This document shows positions 1,483-24,520 of a stretch of 33,970 bases of DNA, piece by piece (position 1 is the stretch's first letter; each line of letters begins with the position of its first letter). Made by a program: the position numbers and the translations under genes. The stretch lies in the UHGV virus genome UHGV-0040082; one strand, 5' to 3'. A model generated the notes under the pieces. It was not told the DNA's origin. It searched no databases and saw only the letters and a list, made by a program, of their open reading frames with translations. The DNA comes from a virus.

Positions 1483-3831
1483 ATGGCAACTAGTTTAGGT
1501 ACAATTTACTACGAAGTTGATGCAAAAACTGGTCAACTTCTCGTTGCTCAACGACAGGCAGACCAGGCTTTTGACAGCATCGAGCGTGGCGCAAAACGCG
1601 CTGACCGCCAGGTGAACACGCTTAAGACTTCAATCAAAGCGCTATCCAGGGTTATCCATTTGCTACTTGCTGCGGAGGCTGTACGCCAGTTTATTGACAT
1701 GGCGGAGCAAGCGAAAATGCTTCGCGTAAAAATCAAAATGCTTACTGGTGATACGGAGGCTGCCGGACGTGTTTTCGATGGCCTGAAAGAAATATCAAAA
1801 GAAACCGGGCAAAGCATGAAGGATACTGGCGAACTGTGGCAAGGCCTTGCTATATCGCTAAAAAACACATCCGCTACTGAAGGCCAATTGCTAAACCTGG
1901 TCGGTACGATTCAGAAAATGGGTGCATTAGGCGGAGCGTCAGCGGAACAGATGTCTAACTCTATGCGCCAGTTCCGCCAGTCTATAGACGGCGGCGTGCT
2001 GCGTGCTGAAGAGTTTAACAGTCTGCTTGAAAACACGCCAACCATCGTACAGACAATGGCTCGCCATATGGGGTTGTCAATGGGCCAGTTCCGCGCCGAA
2101 ATGCTGGACGGCAAGATCACGGCTGAAAGGATGGTTAACGCGATTCAGGCGGCTACACAGGAAACAAACGAGAAGTTCGCACAGTTGCCGCGCACATCCG
2201 GCATGGCCTTCAATGAGCTAAAAGTTGAGGTGATGGGACTTGTCGAACAGCTTGACGATCTTTTCGGCATATCTGACGGCGTTGTGTCAGCAATAGACTT
2301 AATCACTGGCGGCGTTGAGGGATTAGGTAAGGGCGCAAAATTCGCCGCAACATGTTTCAATACACTCAAAACCGCTGGTAGCGAGTTCATCGACATGTTT
2401 GACGATGTTGCTGTTAAGGCTGGCGAGGTTGCTGAAGAGATTATCAGGATGGTAACGCCAATCAAGGCGCTAATGGATGGGTACAAATGGATGAAGGAGA
2501 TCATTGACAAACGCAAGGAAGAGCTAAACAGCAACAACGAGAAGAAATTCGGCCCCACCATTGGCAAATTCATGACATTCAAGAATGACATAGAAAAAGC
2601 CACAGCCGCCTATGACGAGTTCATGCAGAAACAGGGTGAGGCTGACGATGGCAAGATCACCGGATTCGATCAGCCAGTTGGTAAGCCCAAAAAAGGCAAA
2701 AAGGGCAAAAATGACAAGAAATCTGAAGCTGATCGGCTTGGTGATGAAGGCATAAAAGTGTCCGACCAGTACAACAAGGACGCCGCCGCCATGCGTAAAG
2801 CGCTGGAGAACGGCAAGGCCATTGATGCTGCGTTCGCTCAGGGCAAAATAACCCTCCTTGAGTACAAGGCCGCGCAGAAAGGGATAGGCAAGGAGCTGAA
2901 GGACGAATTGGCGCAAATCCCTGTTGATGAGCTACGCGACAAATGGGATCACATAGTCAGCCCGATGGATCAGCTTAAGGGAGAAATTGACCCAATCAAG
3001 CAGGCGCAAAATGAATGGGCCGTTCGAAAACAAATGCTGATAGACCTTGGCGCTACAGAGGCGCAACAGAAACAGGCGCTATTGGAATACGAACAACAGA
3101 TCAGAGATCTGAAATGGGAGCAATGGCAGGCGCAAAGCGAAACAAACGGCCTGATTGGTGCTTGCGTTAGTGGCCTGAAAGGTGGAATGGGCAACGCCCT
3201 TACCGGCCTACTAAACGGTACTCAATCGTTAAGCGAGGTTTTCGCCAACCTGGGAAGTAGCATACTTAACACTGTTGGCAACAAACTATCAGAAATTGCC
3301 GCCAACTGGATAGCAGATCAGTTGATGATGGAAACGCAAAGCAAGGCTACCCAGGCAAGTACAACGGCTGGCGCTGTTGCTGCCCAAGGCGAGATTGCGG
3401 CGGCGGCTATCCCGGCGGCGGCGGCAACGGCTGCGTCAACTGGTGGTAGCTGGGCGGCGGCTGGTGCTGCGGCGCTTTCTGCGATCATGTCACTGGCAAC
3501 GTCAATCTTTGGCGGCGGGCGTTATAATGGTGGCTCTGTTAATGGTGGTAGTCTGTATCGCGTAGGGGAACACGGGATTCCTGAGTTATTCCAGACTAGC
3601 AACGGGCGTCAGTATATGATTCCTGGCGAGAATGGTAGGGTAATTCCTGGTCGCGATCTCTTCAGTGGTGGCGGCATCAACATGCCTGTTAACATCACTG
3701 TCCAGACCACAAACGGATTTAGCGACGAAGACAGTCGCAGACTTGAACAGACGATGGAACGCGTCGCAATGAAAATGATGGCAAGGGAATCGCAACGGCC
3801 CGGAGGGATGTTACAACCTCGCAGGAAATAA
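1483..3831 (+). CDS. Tail tape measure protein
   Basis: 782 aa, largely helical/coiled-coil composition, Ala/Gly-rich hydrophobic segment (AAIPAAAATAASTGGSWAAAGAAALSAIMSLA), located upstream of M-L-K-I-J homologs; RBS GAGGT. Confidence 0.85.
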   Translation: MATSLGTIYYEVDAKTGQLLVAQRQADQAFDSIERGAKRADRQVNTLKTSIKALSRVIHLLLAAEAVRQFIDMAEQAKMLRVKIKMLTGDTEAAGRVFDGLKEISKETGQSMKDTGELWQGLAISLKNTSATEGQLLNLVGTIQKMGALGGASAEQMSNSMRQFRQSIDGGVLRAEEFNSLLENTPTIVQTMARHMGLSMGQFRAEMLDGKITAERMVNAIQAATQETNEKFAQLPRTSGMAFNELKVEVMGLVEQLDDLFGISDGVVSAIDLITGGVEGLGKGAKFAATCFNTLKTAGSEFIDMFDDVAVKAGEVAEEIIRMVTPIKALMDGYKWMKEIIDKRKEELNSNNEKKFGPTIGKFMTFKNDIEKATAAYDEFMQKQGEADDGKITGFDQPVGKPKKGKKGKNDKKSEADRLGDEGIKVSDQYNKDAAAMRKALENGKAIDAAFAQGKITLLEYKAAQKGIGKELKDELAQIPVDELRDKWDHIVSPMDQLKGEIDPIKQAQNEWAVRKQMLIDLGATEAQQKQALLEYEQQIRDLKWEQWQAQSETNGLIGACVSGLKGGMGNALTGLLNGTQSLSEVFANLGSSILNTVGNKLSEIAANWIADQLMMETQSKATQASTTAGAVAAQGEIAAAAIPAAAATAASTGGSWAAAGAAALSAIMSLATSIFGGGRYNGGSVNGGSLYRVGEHGIPELFQTSNGRQYMIPGENGRVIPGRDLFSGGGINMPVNITVQTTNGFSDEDSRRLEQTMERVAMKMMARESQRPGGMLQPRRK

Positions 3832-3835
3832 ACAA

Positions 3836-3866
3836 AACCCCGGTACAATGCCGGGGTTATCTTTCG
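3836..3866. terminator. Rho-independent terminator after tape measure gene
   Basis: Hairpin aaccccgg-tacaatg-ccggggtt followed by a T-rich tract. Confidence 0.55.
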
Positions 3867-3975
3867 TATTTATAACCGACCATTCCGCACGATATATCCT
3901 CTTCCGAAAATTACCTGTCAAATATTCCAGTTCCCCCCGCCTGGTGAATTTATCGTCATCCATATTTCACCTCAT

Positions 3976-4500
3976 TTATGTGCCATGATTAACACCATAA
4001 TATTTTTCTTCTAAAAACATCCTGTAAGCTACTGCATCACCGAAATCGTCAAAGTATTTATTGCTTTTTCTTTTTCCGTTCACAGCTATATACACCCTCC
4101 ACTGCTCCCTAGACTTGCACCACGATACACCACGAAAACCGCTAGTATTGTTTGACTTTATTTTCCCACTCCTTACGAAATCAGCACAGTTATCAACCTG
4201 ATAACCTATGTTAAGGTTTTCTATTCTATCATCACCCCTTACGTCGTTAATGTGCCTTATTACATGCTCATCAGGTATCGGGCCGTGATGCATTACCCAT
4301 ATAACTTGATGTCTATAGTAATTTCTCTTTTTATACGTGAATATGTAGTAACCGTTTTTATTCCTGGCGCCCACCGGACCCGGTTTTCTTCTTCCTCCAT
4401 TTTCACATATTAAAGTTTTCCAATATATGTTCCCTTCACTGTATATAAACAAGTCATTCCAGTTTATGCTATTGACCATGTCGTGATTTATTTGTGACAT
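3976..4500 (-). CDS. HNH homing endonuclease with C-terminal AP2-like DNA-binding domain
   Basis: HNH-type motif (HINDVRGDDRIENLN) followed by an AP2-like segment (GFRGVSW...W.V.I..NGK...); AT-rich relative to flanking tail genes; paralog of the ORF at 22125-22631. Confidence 0.8.
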   Translation of the reverse strand: MSQINHDMVNSINWNDLFIYSEGNIYWKTLICENGGRRKPGPVGARNKNGYYIFTYKKRNYYRHQVIWVMHHGPIPDEHVIRHINDVRGDDRIENLNIGYQVDNCADFVRSGKIKSNNTSGFRGVSWCKSREQWRVYIAVNGKRKSNKYFDDFGDAVAYRMFLEEKYYGVNHGT

Positions 4501-4742
4501 CCCTTAACCCCTGATAATTCATTAAATTTATGGTGCTCAACTATTGCCCACACTTTTAGATCCTTGCTGTACACTCGCCAATCAAGGTTGGCACGGAATG
4601 CGTAGCCGTATCCGTCTTTCAGTTTTTTGGGTGCTACGTCTTTCCTCAAGAACGCGTCCAGAAGTTCTTTTGCTTTTTTGACTACATGATCAGGTGCGTT
4701 TTTCTGTGCTTTCAGATTTTTACCAATCGCTACCAATTTCAT
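4488..4742 (-). CDS. Hypothetical protein (84 aa) upstream of and overlapping the HNH gene
   Basis: ORF overlaps the HNH start by 13 nt, suggesting an operon; no domain recognised. Confidence 0.4.
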   Translation of the reverse strand: MKLVAIGKNLKAQKNAPDHVVKKAKELLDAFLRKDVAPKKLKDGYGYAFRANLDWRVYSKDLKVWAIVEHHKFNELSGVKGCHK

Positions 4743-5085
4743 AACCCACCCCGCAATCCATTAGTTGACCACTTTCAGGAAGAAATCACGGTACTCATTT
4801 TCCTTCGCGTTCATCATGAATTGACCGTATTTGAATGCGTCATCAAAGCCTTTGACTATCGCCACCTCCACCTGTTCGAATGCGTTGTTCAGCATTACCA
4901 CTACATAACGCTTCATGTTGGCCTCCTTTGTCGGTACTGCTTTTTCTTCTTGCTTTCTATATACATCTTGTCACGCCATATGTGAAGCCATTTTGTAAAC
5001 TGGTTATAATTCTTGTGATGAATTTCTCATTTTTCGCGTAGGAGCGCGTAAAGATGTATGCAATATGTAACTTATAGGGGGAATC

Positions 5086-20674: not shown

Positions 20675-22090
20675 TTAAAAAGATGCGTTATTCTGATTGT
20701 TTCGTTGGTTAAATCGGCTTGCGCGATGATTCATAGACTGAATACATGCAGACGCTGCGCGGGCCTGGTCACAAGGGAGGATATTGCCGTTGTCATCAAA
20801 CCGCTGGTAAACAGTACCAGTTTTCCCGTGACGGTTTTTAGATACAATTATTTCCATGTATTCGCGTGCTACAGACTGCTCATCGTAATAACCATCGCGG
20901 TAAACCATGATGATCCTGTCAGCGTCTTGCTCAAGGTTCCCTGAATCTCGAAGATCTGAATTATTAGGGCGCTTGTTAGGTCGTTCCTCAACGCGGCGGG
21001 ATAACTGGGCCAGCGCCAACACTGGTACGCGCAATTCTTTCGCCATCATCTTCAACGACCATGACAATTGCCCTACAGCGAGATCGTGACGTTCGGCTTT
21101 AGCCAGCTTCATTAAACCGATGTAGTCAATCATTACCATGCCCAGGTTTGGGTGATCCTGCTTCATGCGTTCCGTTGTTGCGCGTATTTCCTCAACCGTT
21201 AACTGCGACGCGTCAACGATCCACACCTCAAGATTAGCAAGTGCGCTCATACCCTGGCCGACATGCGCCCAACCCTCATCATCAAGTTTTACCGGATTGC
21301 GCAGGCAGTCAGTTGATAAATTACCAGCGCCAGCAATGGCCCGTTCAGTCATCTGATCGAGTGACATTTCAAGCGTAAACAGCAAAACGCCTACCCGCTG
21401 ACCTTCGCCACCAGGGTAAGGGCGCTCGGCAGCCTCGCGAGCAATTGCAAGCGCCAACGCAGATTTACCAGACCCAGGACGTCCGGCGAGAAGTACCAAA
21501 TCAGTAGCGTTAATTCCGCCTAACATTTCGTCGAGTGGTTCTATACCTGTTTTGATGTTGTCAGAATTGACACCGCATTCCATGCGCTTGCTTAAAACGT
21601 CCGTATACTCCTGTACCGCATCACGCAACAGAACCGGAATGATCTTGTCTTTCGTTACCTTTAATTTTGAATACCGGGAATCAAAATCTTTCATCGTCTC
21701 TTTGACGACTTCAAGCGTCCCCGTTTCCAGCTTGTAGCGCATATCGTCGATGAGTTCCAACATCTGCCGCCGCTGGTGCTCTTCACGTAGTAGCTGTGCG
21801 TATCCCTTCAGGTTGGCAGCAGAAGGACACGATCGCGCCGTTTGCATTAGCGGTACAAAGTTTTCATTGCCAATCTCATCGCCAACTAATAACGCGTCGA
21901 TAAGATTCCTGTTTCTGGCTTGCGCCCGGATAACTTCAAACGCACGTTTATAAAGCGGGATCGTGAACACTTCAGGATCAAGTGTGGCGAGAACATCTTG
22001 CGCGTTAGGAGTAAGGCCACCTAACAGTAGCCCGCCGATAACTGACGCTTCACGTTCCTGCCGTAGTGAGTTTATTTGCTCAGTTACCAT
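20675..22090 (-). CDS. DnaB-family replicative DNA helicase
   Basis: 471 aa; N-terminal DnaB-like domain, Walker A GRPGSGKS, C-terminal RecA-like fold motifs. Confidence 0.85.
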   Translation of the reverse strand: MVTEQINSLRQEREASVIGGLLLGGLTPNAQDVLATLDPEVFTIPLYKRAFEVIRAQARNRNLIDALLVGDEIGNENFVPLMQTARSCPSAANLKGYAQLLREEHQRRQMLELIDDMRYKLETGTLEVVKETMKDFDSRYSKLKVTKDKIIPVLLRDAVQEYTDVLSKRMECGVNSDNIKTGIEPLDEMLGGINATDLVLLAGRPGSGKSALALAIAREAAERPYPGGEGQRVGVLLFTLEMSLDQMTERAIAGAGNLSTDCLRNPVKLDDEGWAHVGQGMSALANLEVWIVDASQLTVEEIRATTERMKQDHPNLGMVMIDYIGLMKLAKAERHDLAVGQLSWSLKMMAKELRVPVLALAQLSRRVEERPNKRPNNSDLRDSGNLEQDADRIIMVYRDGYYDEQSVAREYMEIIVSKNRHGKTGTVYQRFDDNGNILPCDQARAASACIQSMNHRASRFNQRNNQNNASF

Positions 22091-22124
22091 TATGTTATTG
22101 CCTCCGGTTTACAAAATGGAAAAT

Positions 22125-22631
22125 TCAGGGTAAAGAAATACCGTGATTGCTATGAAAGTTATACATTCTTTCAGCTTCTTTTCTTGCTTTTACGGCATCA
22201 TCAAATGAGTCACCGTAATAAACGTATATTGTTTTCTTTTTCCCATCAGACCCCCTTATACCTATTTGCGCGCGCCATTTATTAGTTTTCTTGTTCCATG
22301 TAACGCCAACGCATCCGCTGGTGTTACTTGATGGTATTGTTTTATTTCTGTTGTTCTCCCTCCTTGTAACCATCCTTAAGTTTTCGATTCTATCATCGCC
22401 AGGCACATGATTTATGTGATCTATTTCCATTCCATCAGGGATAGGGCCGTTAAACATTTCCCAAATAATGCGGTGACGCCATGTACAACACACACCATTA
22501 ACGCGGATAGTCCAATATCCGCTATGATGCCTACTTCCAGCAACGTCACCGGCTTTTGTTTTGTTATTTGCGCGGTTACAAGACCAATATAGAACACCGT
22601 CCCTATAGGTAAATAAATCATCCCACATCAT
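22125..22631 (-). CDS. HNH homing endonuclease with AP2-like domain (second copy)
   Basis: EIDHINHVPGDDRIENLR motif followed by GCVGVTW...W.A.I motif; start overlaps the stop of the upstream gene; paralog of the ORF at 3976-4500. Confidence 0.75.
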   Translation of the reverse strand: MMWDDLFTYRDGVLYWSCNRANNKTKAGDVAGSRHHSGYWTIRVNGVCCTWRHRIIWEMFNGPIPDGMEIDHINHVPGDDRIENLRMVTRRENNRNKTIPSSNTSGCVGVTWNKKTNKWRAQIGIRGSDGKKKTIYVYYGDSFDDAVKARKEAERMYNFHSNHGISLP

Positions 22632-23748
22632 GACACACCACCATTTCAGGCCTATATACAAAGCGACCAATTTCGCCATAATCAGGACTGTAAATGATAA
22701 CCGCCGCGCAACGTTGCGATCTCCATCCTCCATTAGTTGAATAAGCGTCTTTGCCCGCTAACGTGCCGTGGTGTTCAACTATGCCTATAGATGATTCTGT
22801 TACTGATTTATGGTGCAAATGTCCGACATGGACGTAAACATATTTCGACTTGCCGAAATCCTCGCGCCAGTCAGCTACGCAAGCAGCCAATAAATTTTCC
22901 GGCTTTTTAATAGTGTGCCCGTGGTGGTAAGCAAGAAATGTTTTACCGTACTGCGTGTGGTGGACGATAGCAGGTGACACATCAACCGTCACGCGCGGTT
23001 CATCTTCGTAAAAAGCCGCCAGCGCCGCACGTAGCCAAATCATGCCTGACTGATCGTGATTGCCTGACAACACCTGGATTTCAACATCCTTATGATTTAA
23101 CAACATTTTACCTACCGCCCGCCGGACAGACCGGATCGCCACATAAACAAGTTTTGCGTAGCGACTATCTTGATCAAGAATGTGCCCGCTTATTGGCGTC
23201 ACCGGGACCATACCGTCAGAATGAAGCAGATCGCCACCGAGGAGCAGTACGGCTTTTTCAGACATCGGAGCAGCGCCAACAGCGTAGTCAAAGAAGTCAT
23301 TCAACACGCGCTCAGCGATCCCAGTGTCGTAGCTCTCGCCGCATTCAGCTTTATGAGCAAGCGCCCCGATATGCAGATCAAACACCGGATAAAGGGCCAG
23401 GCTTTTTTGAAAATCAATTTCAGGCACTGGCACAGCCTCCGCGCGTGGTATTTCATCCGTGAAAGCGTCGCGGGCCGCTTCCATTAACTGTTCCATTTCG
23501 TCGCGGTCACGGGCTGTTTTAATCCAGCGCATGATCACATTGCCATCCTTATCGACGAGCAATGACTCAGCATTGACGCCAAAACCCGGTGCGCGACGCG
23601 TGGATATTAAACCGCGTTTCGCCAGTTTTGCGCCTAGCCGCTCGACGTTGCGTTTTGACATGCCATATTTTTCAGCGATCTGCTTGTACGTTAAACCGTT
23701 GTTATATTCAGCGATCAATTGCTCATCGCTGATTTTTCTTTGTGACAT
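22618..23748 (-). CDS. HTH domain fused to calcineurin-like metallophosphoesterase
   Basis: N-terminal HTH (LTYKQIAEKYGMSKRNVERL); then phosphoesterase motifs in order: DLHIG, GGDLLHSDG, GNHD, YHHGH, GHLHH. Confidence 0.7.
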   Translation of the reverse strand: MSQRKISDEQLIAEYNNGLTYKQIAEKYGMSKRNVERLGAKLAKRGLISTRRAPGFGVNAESLLVDKDGNVIMRWIKTARDRDEMEQLMEAARDAFTDEIPRAEAVPVPEIDFQKSLALYPVFDLHIGALAHKAECGESYDTGIAERVLNDFFDYAVGAAPMSEKAVLLLGGDLLHSDGMVPVTPISGHILDQDSRYAKLVYVAIRSVRRAVGKMLLNHKDVEIQVLSGNHDQSGMIWLRAALAAFYEDEPRVTVDVSPAIVHHTQYGKTFLAYHHGHTIKKPENLLAACVADWREDFGKSKYVYVHVGHLHHKSVTESSIGIVEHHGTLAGKDAYSTNGGWRSQRCAAVIIYSPDYGEIGRFVYRPEMVVCHDVG

Positions 23749-23782
23749 AGTGTCATTTCCTCACGAATAACAAATTGTATAC

Positions 23783-24520
23783 TTAGTTGCAAGTTAAAAG
23801 CTCAGTGATCCATACTTGTCCTTTAGCAGTGAATACAGCCTGCTCATATCCATCGTGAGTTACCCTCATTTCACCGTAGCCCTCATCAATAAACCACTGA
23901 CTGAATACACGGCGGCGACAGCGAAGATCATAAACACCAACCGCCGAAAGTTTTCTGTTTAATTTTACGGCTGACATTCCCAGCGGTTTAGCTACCTCTG
24001 AAGCCGTTCGGTGCATATCGTTTTTGACTATCGCGTCACATACAGCCGCTTTCGGAGCCAGCACTTTATTTTCAAGCGCAAGACGTTCATTTTCTTGCTT
24101 AACTAACAATTTTTGCTCGTATTCATTAGCCCACGCCCGCGCCGCTTCCGCAGGGTTAGAGAAGTCAGGCAAAGCAGGTTTGCAACCGTAACACCCATTT
24201 TCACGCAAAGCCGGAAGAACCTCCTCGCACACCCAATCCTGGAAGCGCTCGGCTGATTCTAATTTTGATCTCATAACAAGACGGTATATATCTGCCTCTC
24301 GAATTATAATTATGCCTTTTGGTCTGAACCCAAAACCTAATTCCGTTGTTTTAACGGAATCAAGTTTAATCAATGACTTACAATGTTTTTTAATGGCCTG
24401 ATGCTCGTCGTTGTACCCCAGCGCACGGGCCACATCAACCGCAACAAAAGCAGGTTTACCGTCATAAATTACAGCAGTGATTTTATTGTCATCAAAATTA
24501 AAACACATCAACTCAGACAT
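23783..24520 (-). CDS. Bro-N / KilA-C-type antirepressor-like protein
   Basis: Start at MSELM with GGAGA RBS; N-terminal Bro-N segment near-identical in places to the ORF at 19107-19667; longer C-terminal domain. Confidence 0.7.
   Translation of the reverse strand: MSELMCFNFDDNKITAVIYDGKPAFVAVDVARALGYNDEHQAIKKHCKSLIKLDSVKTTELGFGFRPKGIIIIREADIYRLVMRSKLESAERFQDWVCEEVLPALRENGCYGCKPALPDFSNPAEAARAWANEYEQKLLVKQENERLALENKVLAPKAAVCDAIVKNDMHRTASEVAKPLGMSAVKLNRKLSAVGVYDLRCRRRVFSQWFIDEGYGEMRVTHDGYEQAVFTAKGQVWITELLTCN

Follow-up and report, generated by a model that had tools for sequence, protein, structure and literature searches.

The gene analysed here encodes a putative homing endonuclease with an HNH nuclease core and an AP2-like DNA-binding domain (HNH-AP2) and is carried by the virus genome UHGV-0040082, of which the whole stretch of 33,970 nucleotides (nt) that we examined is called the window. 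The gene lies between a gene for a helix-turn-helix (HTH) metallophosphoesterase, annotated in relatives as a DNA repair exonuclease or phosphoesterase and referred to below as the exonuclease gene, and the gene of a DnaB-type replicative helicase (Table 1); all genes of the region are on the minus strand. Here the window shares 90-93% identity with the mEp021-like "mEpimmI" coliphages, a group of temperate phages described in PMC11893012. In our view this is quite probably a free-standing homing endonuclease gene (HEG) in the early replication operon of mEp021-like phages, which has spread by homing into the empty 3' end of the exonuclease gene.

The HNH-AP2 gene and its product

The open reading frame (ORF) starts with ATGATG, the ATG lying at 22631, and stops with the TGA at 22125-22127. 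A preliminary description of the window, made from the sequence alone, had reported a second HNH/AP2 gene at this place, and a gene with both an HNH_3 and an AP2-like domain is indeed present on the minus strand; the additional positions assigned to it, 22091-22124, are the spacer ahead of the helicase ATG (22088-22090). The overlap of its ATG with the end of the upstream gene was also described correctly: the exonuclease stop codon (22618-22620) sits 14 nt within the HNH ORF. The HNH gene is read in a frame different from that of the exonuclease gene, overlaps only the last 14 nt of the latter and ends ahead of the helicase gene, and no Rfam family, group I and group II introns included, was detected at E <= 1 in positions 21500-24000. 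The gene is free-standing and neither intron- nor intein-encoded. Consensus scans for a promoter or terminator of its own around the gene gave results no better than chance; it is probably co-transcribed with the neighbouring replication genes. The probable translation start is an ATG that lies within the C-terminal extension newly gained by the exonuclease, and the Shine-Dalgarno-like sequence GGTGG precedes it. The HNH frame is open upstream to 22733, and for mEp515 and mEp010 the PHANOTATE program gives products of 185-196 amino acids which start 51 nt upstream of the ATG used here. We rejected such a longer N-terminus as unnecessary because the homologues all begin at MxW(N/D)D, including those of the Drexlerviridae, which are preceded by a spacer.

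The nuclease core is a canonical Pfam HNH_3 domain (PF13392), matched over profile positions 2-46 of 46 with 76.7 bits against a cutoff of 24.8 (E 1e-21), and the protein is assigned to phrog_99, "HNH endonuclease", in the PHROGs database (E 7e-60). Its motif reads EIDHINH...ENL...RENNRN. In an alignment of 115 homologous sequences N84 is invariant and D71, H72, N93 and N96 are at least 90% conserved. The match to Pfam AP2 (PF00847) lies below the gathering threshold (24.3 bits against a cutoff of 33.3, E 3.8e-5). Because a search for relatives by sequence in the PDB yielded nothing at E <= 0.1, a comparison at the level of the fold was required. The AlphaFold model, built on the 115 homologues, has a mean pLDDT (predicted local distance difference test) of 90, and its C-terminal region, with strands at residues 110-113, 118-126 and 132-140 and a helix at 143-156, has the three-stranded sheet and helix of AP2/ERF domains. 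The top Foldseek match of the model in the PDB was I-HmuI (1u3e, probability 1.00), followed by the AP2 domains of AtERF1 (1gcc), WRINKLED1 (7wq5) and TEM1 (7et5) with probabilities of 0.96-0.98. I-HmuI, from the Bacillus phage SPO1, shares the HNH_3-type core with its D-H...N...N arrangement, and we take the roles of these residues to be those in the I-HmuI structure. It differs from our protein in being a group I intron-encoded nickase with other C-terminal DNA-binding modules, whereas the present gene has no intron and an AP2-like domain; the sequence identity of the two proteins is 18%.

Three distinct alleles of the window type gave a ratio of nonsynonymous to synonymous substitutions (dN/dS) of 0.08-0.14, at a synonymous divergence (dS) of 0.26-0.40. 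The neighbours have similar dS values in the same comparison, 0.13-0.43 for the exonuclease gene and 0.03-0.42 for the helicase gene. To judge from these rates, the HNH gene is a long-standing and maintained coding gene of this phage group, neither a fresh arrival nor a decaying relic.

Occupied and empty alleles of the exonuclease-helicase junction

The preliminary description had called the gene wedged between its two neighbours and had proposed a search for insert-free alleles in related phages. Such alleles exist, and the gene proved to be an insert with precise presence and absence at one site. It is present in the window, in mEp021, mEp515 and mEp010 and in one metagenomic contig (L015, with an HNH protein of the window type, 91% identical), that is, at five loci. 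The site is empty in mEp554, mEp044, mEp013 and MagusPhagus, where the exonuclease and helicase genes are 18 nt apart with nothing between them. In addition, 34 prophages in 5426 complete Escherichia coli genomes match the flanks, and none of the 34 has the insert (two were inspected). More than 35 empty loci thus stand against five occupied ones. As an observation on the sampling, the gene occurs in three of the six sequenced free mEp isolates, in the window and, among metagenomic proteins, in a cluster of 90 members, as against none of the 34 prophages; the difference between prophages and free isolates could be due to sampling bias or could mean that the gene spreads mainly in lytic co-infection.

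An alignment of eight genomes places the insertion, with boundaries ambiguous by a few nucleotides, at an empty-site sequence that reads CGCTTTGTTTA followed by TTACCCTGAATTTTCCATTTTGTAA; in mEp554 and mEp013 the empty junction is CGCTTTGTTTA followed by TTACCCTGAA. In the empty alleles the exonuclease ORF ends with ...GRFVYYPEFSIL and a stop codon, and its protein ends with YPEFSIL. Because the TAA of this ORF lies inside CCATTTTGTAA, the insertion interrupts the ancestral ORF seven to eight codons short of its end. The occupied exonuclease allele has acquired a new ending, ...GRFVYRPEMVVCHDVG and a stop, which contains the GGTGG and the ATG of the HNH gene; the 12 terminal codons, which make up the left end of the insert (22618-22654), encode the 11 residues RPEMVVCHDVG and the stop. 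On the other side of the insert, the remnant of the old exonuclease end now provides the HNH stop codon, out of frame. One copy of the motif ACAAAATGG was said to lie between the HNH gene and the helicase start, and it does (22111-22119), within this remnant. We rejected the motif as a part of the mobile element: empty alleles have the same copy, which, read on the gene strand, makes up the final exonuclease codons TCC ATT TTG TAA, and the copy at 22111 is therefore ancestral coding sequence. As a separate observation, ACAAAATGG occurs eight times in the window on both strands (at 1407, 4988, 6526, 14525, 14554, 22111, 27150 and 27906) against an expectation of 0.67, and several of these copies precede a gene start by 20-130 nt.

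The insert is linked to a divergent piece of the exonuclease gene. Nearly all of the fixed differences between occupied and empty alleles (31 of 34) lie within about 200 nt of the exonuclease gene directly 5' of the insert. In this tail (approximately 22655-22851) the occupied phages are 97.5-100% identical to each other and only 72-77% identical to the empty ones, and its left edge is abrupt, close to AAGTCGAAATATGT at 22851. Beyond the tail, occupancy is uncoupled from relatedness: over the first 300 nt of the helicase gene the occupied mEp010 is 98% identical to the empty mEp044, and in the 5' part of the exonuclease gene the occupied mEp515 is 93% identical to the empty mEp554. Since the nearest relative of every occupied phage outside the tail is an empty one, the history of the cassette differs from that of its flanks. 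Such a pattern would arise if the HNH gene moved along with a divergent segment of a donor exonuclease gene. We propose that the common left edge arose because the divergence of the tail, about 25%, would force crossovers to fall outside it. Where could the tail have come from? Direct donation from the Drexlerviridae was considered and rejected, as the tail DNA is no nearer to that of ACG-M12 and C119 than the empty alleles are, except for the last 80 nt or so, and a distant blastn search with the whole cassette found no closer donor in the phage collection.

The right junction is more variable. The last part of the HNH ORF, which we call the 3' module (Table 1), is near-invariant in the alleles of the window type and near-identical in the metagenomic contig L017, which carries another HNH lineage; it looks like a right-hand crossover zone. 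In four of the six distinct occupied alleles (mEp010, L015, L017 and L019) the junction reads ...TTTACC..GAAAATACATTTTG..., and their HNH ORFs run 11-14 codons longer, to the helicase ATG or a few nucleotides beyond it. The window, mEp021 and mEp515 have a short form ending with ...HGISLP and a stop, in which the empty-allele sequence CCTGAATTTTCC supplies the TGA and shortens the protein. The form of 168 amino acids found in the window seems to be derived, having been truncated when the right junction received a patch of sequence from an empty allele. It was also seen that the extended ends (...SLP(I/N/D)ENTFCK(P/H)E...) cross the helicase Shine-Dalgarno sequence, at L009 2991-3581 (mEp010), L015 425-973, L017 3001-3531 and L019 1900-2439.

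Window-type genes are not the only occupants of this junction. We looked at five metagenomic contexts for further lineages. One contig (L019) has an HNH gene whose product is 60% identical to ours, lying between an exonuclease gene of 375 codons and the helicase gene, with the same 14-nt start overlap and a tail variant of its own. Another (L017) has an HNH protein of 55% identity at the same exonuclease-helicase junction. Its exonuclease gene is chimeric: the N-terminal HTH (amino acids 1-93) is 97% identical to that of the window, and the whole phosphoesterase domain has about 45% amino acid identity. The last 100 nt or so of its HNH ORF match the window-type gene almost base for base, and that HNH gene is a chimera as well. 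The contig in question is Logan SRR15275226, which is mEpimmI-like and has the chimeric exonuclease and the HNH gene at 1887-3531.

Table 1. Positions of the HNH-AP2 gene, its domains, the insertion and the related features in the window
Feature	Position	Strand	Basis
Putative HNH-AP2 homing endonuclease ORF	22125..22631	minus	168 amino acids, stop included in coordinates; ORF and sequence, Pfam, PHROG 99
HNH_3 nuclease core, residues 51-95 (D71-H72, N84, N93/N96)	22347..22481	minus	Pfam match
AP2-like DNA-binding domain, residues ~107-155	22167..22313	minus	Sub-threshold Pfam AP2 and fold
521-bp insertion relative to HEG-free alleles	22134..22654		8-genome alignment; boundaries ambiguous by a few nt
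Divergent exonuclease 3' tail linked to the insert	22655..22851	minus	Fixed differences and identity contrast
Conserved HNH 3' module (GDSFDDAVKARKEAER.YNFHSNHGISLP)	22125..22214	minus	Near-invariant in window-type alleles; near-identical in L017
Relic of the ancestral exonuclease end (TTACCCTGAATTTTCCATTTTGTAA) and helicase Shine-Dalgarno GGAGG (22101-22105)	22091..22133	minus	Identical in empty alleles, encoding ...YPEFSIL and stop
HTH and metallophosphoesterase ("DNA repair exonuclease", PHROG 704), presumed host/target gene	22618..23748	minus	PHROG 704, E 3e-143
DnaB-type replicative helicase, downstream neighbour	20675..22090	minus	Pfam DnaB_C, E 1e-75, and DnaB N-terminal domain
Distant paralog HNH1, 174 amino acids, between tape-measure and minor-tail genes	3976..4500	minus	BLASTP 40%; HNH_3, E 6e-14

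Association with the exonuclease gene and the case for homing

The association with the exonuclease gene extends beyond the mEpimmI phages. All 13 of the examined relatives that are at least 55% identical to the HNH protein, from mEpimmI and Drexlerviridae, are encoded directly 3' of a homologous exonuclease gene, while the three examined relatives at 52-54.5% identity (SA80RD, K1M and L022) are all located elsewhere. In the Drexlerviridae, relatives of 59-69% identity lie directly 3' of an exonuclease gene of 376-378 codons in ACG-M12, C119, AKS96, TH30 (by coordinates), L016, L020 and L021. There the two genes are separated by a gap of 65-75 nt, which in AKS96 contains an annotated terminator, and the genes downstream of the HNH gene vary, being a polynucleotide kinase gene, small ORFs or a holin gene. 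As the upstream gene is constant and the downstream genes are variable, the target is pointed to in the 3' end of the exonuclease gene. Could the HNH protein instead be a functional partner of the phosphoesterase, in a DNA-processing module of two genes that for this reason are always adjacent? The constant adjacency in close relatives from two phage families would agree with such a module. However, the exonuclease is carried by 2039 phage records and most exonuclease phages are without the HNH gene, the exonuclease 3' end being empty in the Hanrivervirus phages BEC3 and aalborv of the Drexlerviridae as well as in all of the prophages; other HNH-AP2 members lie beside unrelated genes (head morphogenesis, lysis, primase), and the terminator of the Drexlerviridae separates the two genes. 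We consider a functional module very improbable.

The residues at the end of the exonuclease also follow occupancy. In a comparison of 14 sequences, the occupied alleles (eight of eight, from three mEpimmI tail types and four Drexlerviridae) have WRS[QYM]R and RP[EGK]M, whereas the empty ones (six of six, four from mEpimmI and two from Hanrivervirus) have WRSRR and YPE. The tail of the FAH prophage is recombinant, with an upstream half like that of the occupied alleles and, nearest to the insertion site, a half of the empty type, which narrows the association between tail and occupancy to roughly the last 35 codons. We hypothesize that these tail residues mark the recognition site of the enzyme and the immunity to it.

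The process we favour, homing into the exonuclease 3' end, could work as follows. When a carrier of the gene meets a phage or prophage without it in a mixed infection, the enzyme would recognize the 3' end of the empty exonuclease allele and nick or cut it. Recombinational repair from the occupied genome would then copy the HEG together with the adjacent 200 nt or so of the exonuclease tail. The occupied genome itself would be protected, as the insert splits the site and the tail differs, for example by the change of YPE to RPEM and of RSRR to RSQR. From the population patterns described above we infer that the enzyme cleaves DNA, where it does so and how the gene is copied.

Several points weigh against this reading. 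In the literature we found no cleavage or homing experiment for this enzyme or its close relatives, nor a biochemical test of any member of the exonuclease-associated HNH-AP2 clade. The dS of the HNH gene is like that of core genes, which suggests long residence, so that present-day homing is not demonstrated. The tail is more conserved than the HNH ORF, with 3-5 differences in 200 nt among the occupied lineages compared with 36-51 in the 507 nt of the ORF (concentrated in nt 24-405) and with 16-21 differing positions in the same tail region among the empty phages; the spread of a single clonal cassette does not predict this. The contrast between tail and gene could be explained if lineages have exchanged the middle of the HNH gene, as in L017, or if the nucleotide sequence of the tail is under constraint. 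The left edge shared by the four window-type alleles would fit equally well with one ancestral event followed by recombination in the flanks. The sequences compared are phylogenetically non-independent, and the correlation of tail residues with occupancy could partly reflect shared ancestry. Finally, the comparison set is small, comprising three distinct alleles of the window type and two other lineages, each from a single metagenomic contig.

Some of these points would also suit a passive accessory gene, which was gained once by illegitimate recombination and has since been passed on by vertical descent and mosaic shuffling, its nuclease being irrelevant to the spread or being kept because it harms competitors or benefits the carrier. 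An allele dS equal to that of core genes implies the long residence that such a gene would have, the four window-type alleles have the same left tail edge, mEpimmI genomes are highly mosaic throughout (PMC11893012), and not one of the prophages is occupied. A passive gene would nevertheless not be expected to occur as three HNH lineages at an identical junction, nor to have the same lineage 3' of a homologous exonuclease gene in the unrelated Drexlerviridae despite other downstream genes; moreover, the tail residues correlate with occupancy across families, and the catalytic residues are intact under purifying selection. It is because of this repeated use of the junction, the tracking of the exonuclease gene, the tail correlation and the intact residues that we prefer site-specific targeting to chance insertion, and we regard the passive gene as unlikely.

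It is possible, though we would not go beyond a tentative proposal, that a whole clade of HNH-AP2 enzymes is specialized on the 3' end of PHROG 704 genes and moves between the virulent Drexlerviridae and the temperate mEpimmI phages. At least three lineages would then compete for the mEpimmI junction, each with a resistant tail, exchanging segments through the 3' module, and the tail codons (RSRR or RS[QYM]R, YPE or RP[EGK]M) would mark recognition and immunity. If this is true, these phages would offer a natural system, tractable in E. coli K-12, for the study of how homing endonucleases compete and how genes pass between lytic and temperate phages.

Taken alone, the gene is nothing unusual. 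HNH-AP2 enzymes are abundant in enterobacterial siphoviruses, and the orthologues mEp021_10, mEp515_11 and mEp010_11 (MH706966, PP180003 and PP180001), which are 91-92% identical in amino acid sequence and occupy the same position between the same genes, are already annotated as "putative HNH endonuclease" or "homing endonuclease". The window has a variant of its own, with 13 amino acid differences from mEp021 and 93% nucleotide identity. A family of HNH-AP2 homing endonucleases is known from phages, cyanobacteria and protists, according to the passage of PMC10448857 that cites its ref. 45. Our protein is phage-borne like members of that family and has the same order of domains, with HNH_3 at the N-terminus and AP2 at the C-terminus, but by sequence its AP2 domain fails to reach the Pfam cutoff, and only the fold supports it. 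Intronless homing with co-conversion and marker exclusion has been described for the free-standing SegG, SegE and MobE of phage T4 in the works cited by PMC10448857 as refs 10-11. Like the T4 Seg and Mob genes, the present HEG stands free, between conserved genes or at the end of one, and has a linked flanking haplotype, from which spread by break repair with co-conversion may be deduced. The Seg proteins are GIY-YIG nucleases, however, and MobE is an HNH enzyme without AP2, whereas in our case the host is a temperate siphovirus and homing is deduced from patterns in populations. HEGs at the boundaries of genetic exchange and the IPA-HNH HEGs of phage ICP1 were reported by Barth, Dunham & Seed 2023 (PMC10448857). 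As in that study, the HEG described here lies beside an essential replication gene at a mosaic boundary and there is swapping of segments (compare the chimera in L017), but the Pfam HNH_3 profile, of which our protein is a canonical match, does not recognize the strongly diverged nuclease domains of the ICP1 IPA-HNH proteins.

What makes the locus worth attention is that it is a clean example in cultivable phages of E. coli K-12, with occupied and empty alleles, a sharply bounded flank of about 200 nt and alternative lineages, and that the exonuclease association recurs in an unrelated virulent family. The description of mEpimmI (PMC11893012) is silent on these features of the locus, and the words "HNH" and "homing" do not occur in it. 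The locus might be used for testing AP2-type intronless homing, for mapping an AP2 recognition site and for measuring how mosaic boundaries are created in a conserved replication gene. It is also a warning for annotation: insertion has produced, as by-products, both the C-terminal end of the exonuclease and the spacer "motif".

The two HNH genes of the window

The window contains a second gene of this family, HNH1, and a tblastn search found exactly two copies, so that a third copy was rejected. The preliminary description had taken the two genes for clear paralogs and had suggested that they be aligned; a BLASTP comparison gave 40% identity over 168 amino acids (E 3e-31), and the motifs GDDRIENL, GPIPD and SGxxGVxW on which the claim was based are found in both proteins. 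The further suggestion, that the pair reflects recent intragenomic spread and provides a substrate for rearrangement, did not hold. It would mean that the gene at 22125-22631 was copied recently from that at 3976-4500 and that the two can now recombine, and in its favour are their homology, the common order of domains and motifs and the fact that both ATGs overlap the end of the upstream gene. Yet the proteins are just 40% identical, and the DNA of the two genes has a best match of 74% over 95 nt and a longest exact run of 12 nt, which is too short for a realistic substrate of homologous recombination. Each copy also has closer relatives in other phages or prophages. Our protein is 62-69% identical to proteins of the Drexlerviridae ACG-M12 (69%), SCS31, ECH1, C119, AKS96, AHP42 and TH30, and none of the 113 database homologues in the alignment is more distant from it than HNH1; HNH1 forms a lineage of its own, with relatives of 74-91% identity in E. 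coli prophages and metagenomes and a separate variant of the active site. We give next to no credence to a recent duplication. Matches were found in 3357 phage records for our protein and in 2260 for HNH1, and the two genes are evidently independent acquisitions from a very large pool, old relatives by their sequences and no recent duplicate.

HNH1 and all of its relatives of 74-91% identity have R-H in place of the metal-binding D-H and an insertion of four residues after the DN of the HNH motif. With this conserved atypical active site HNH1 may be a nickase, an inactive nuclease or a variant that only binds DNA.

The logic of insertion is alike at the HNH1 site, where the ATG is embedded in the last codons of an upstream gene of 84 codons (GGATGTCACAAATAA) and a relic of the end of that gene (GGCACATAAATGAGGTG) lies to the right of the insert. 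We compared the loci at window positions 3830-4760, L005 2007-2513, L006 1340-1930 and L007 1387-2721. The site 3' of the 84-codon gene (PHROG 1525; window 3830-4760) is a second insertion hot spot, polymorphic among phages: mEp515 has a different HNH gene there, with a product 36% identical to the window copy and the same embedded ATG, MagusPhagus is empty, and mEp021 has two zinc-ribbon genes instead.

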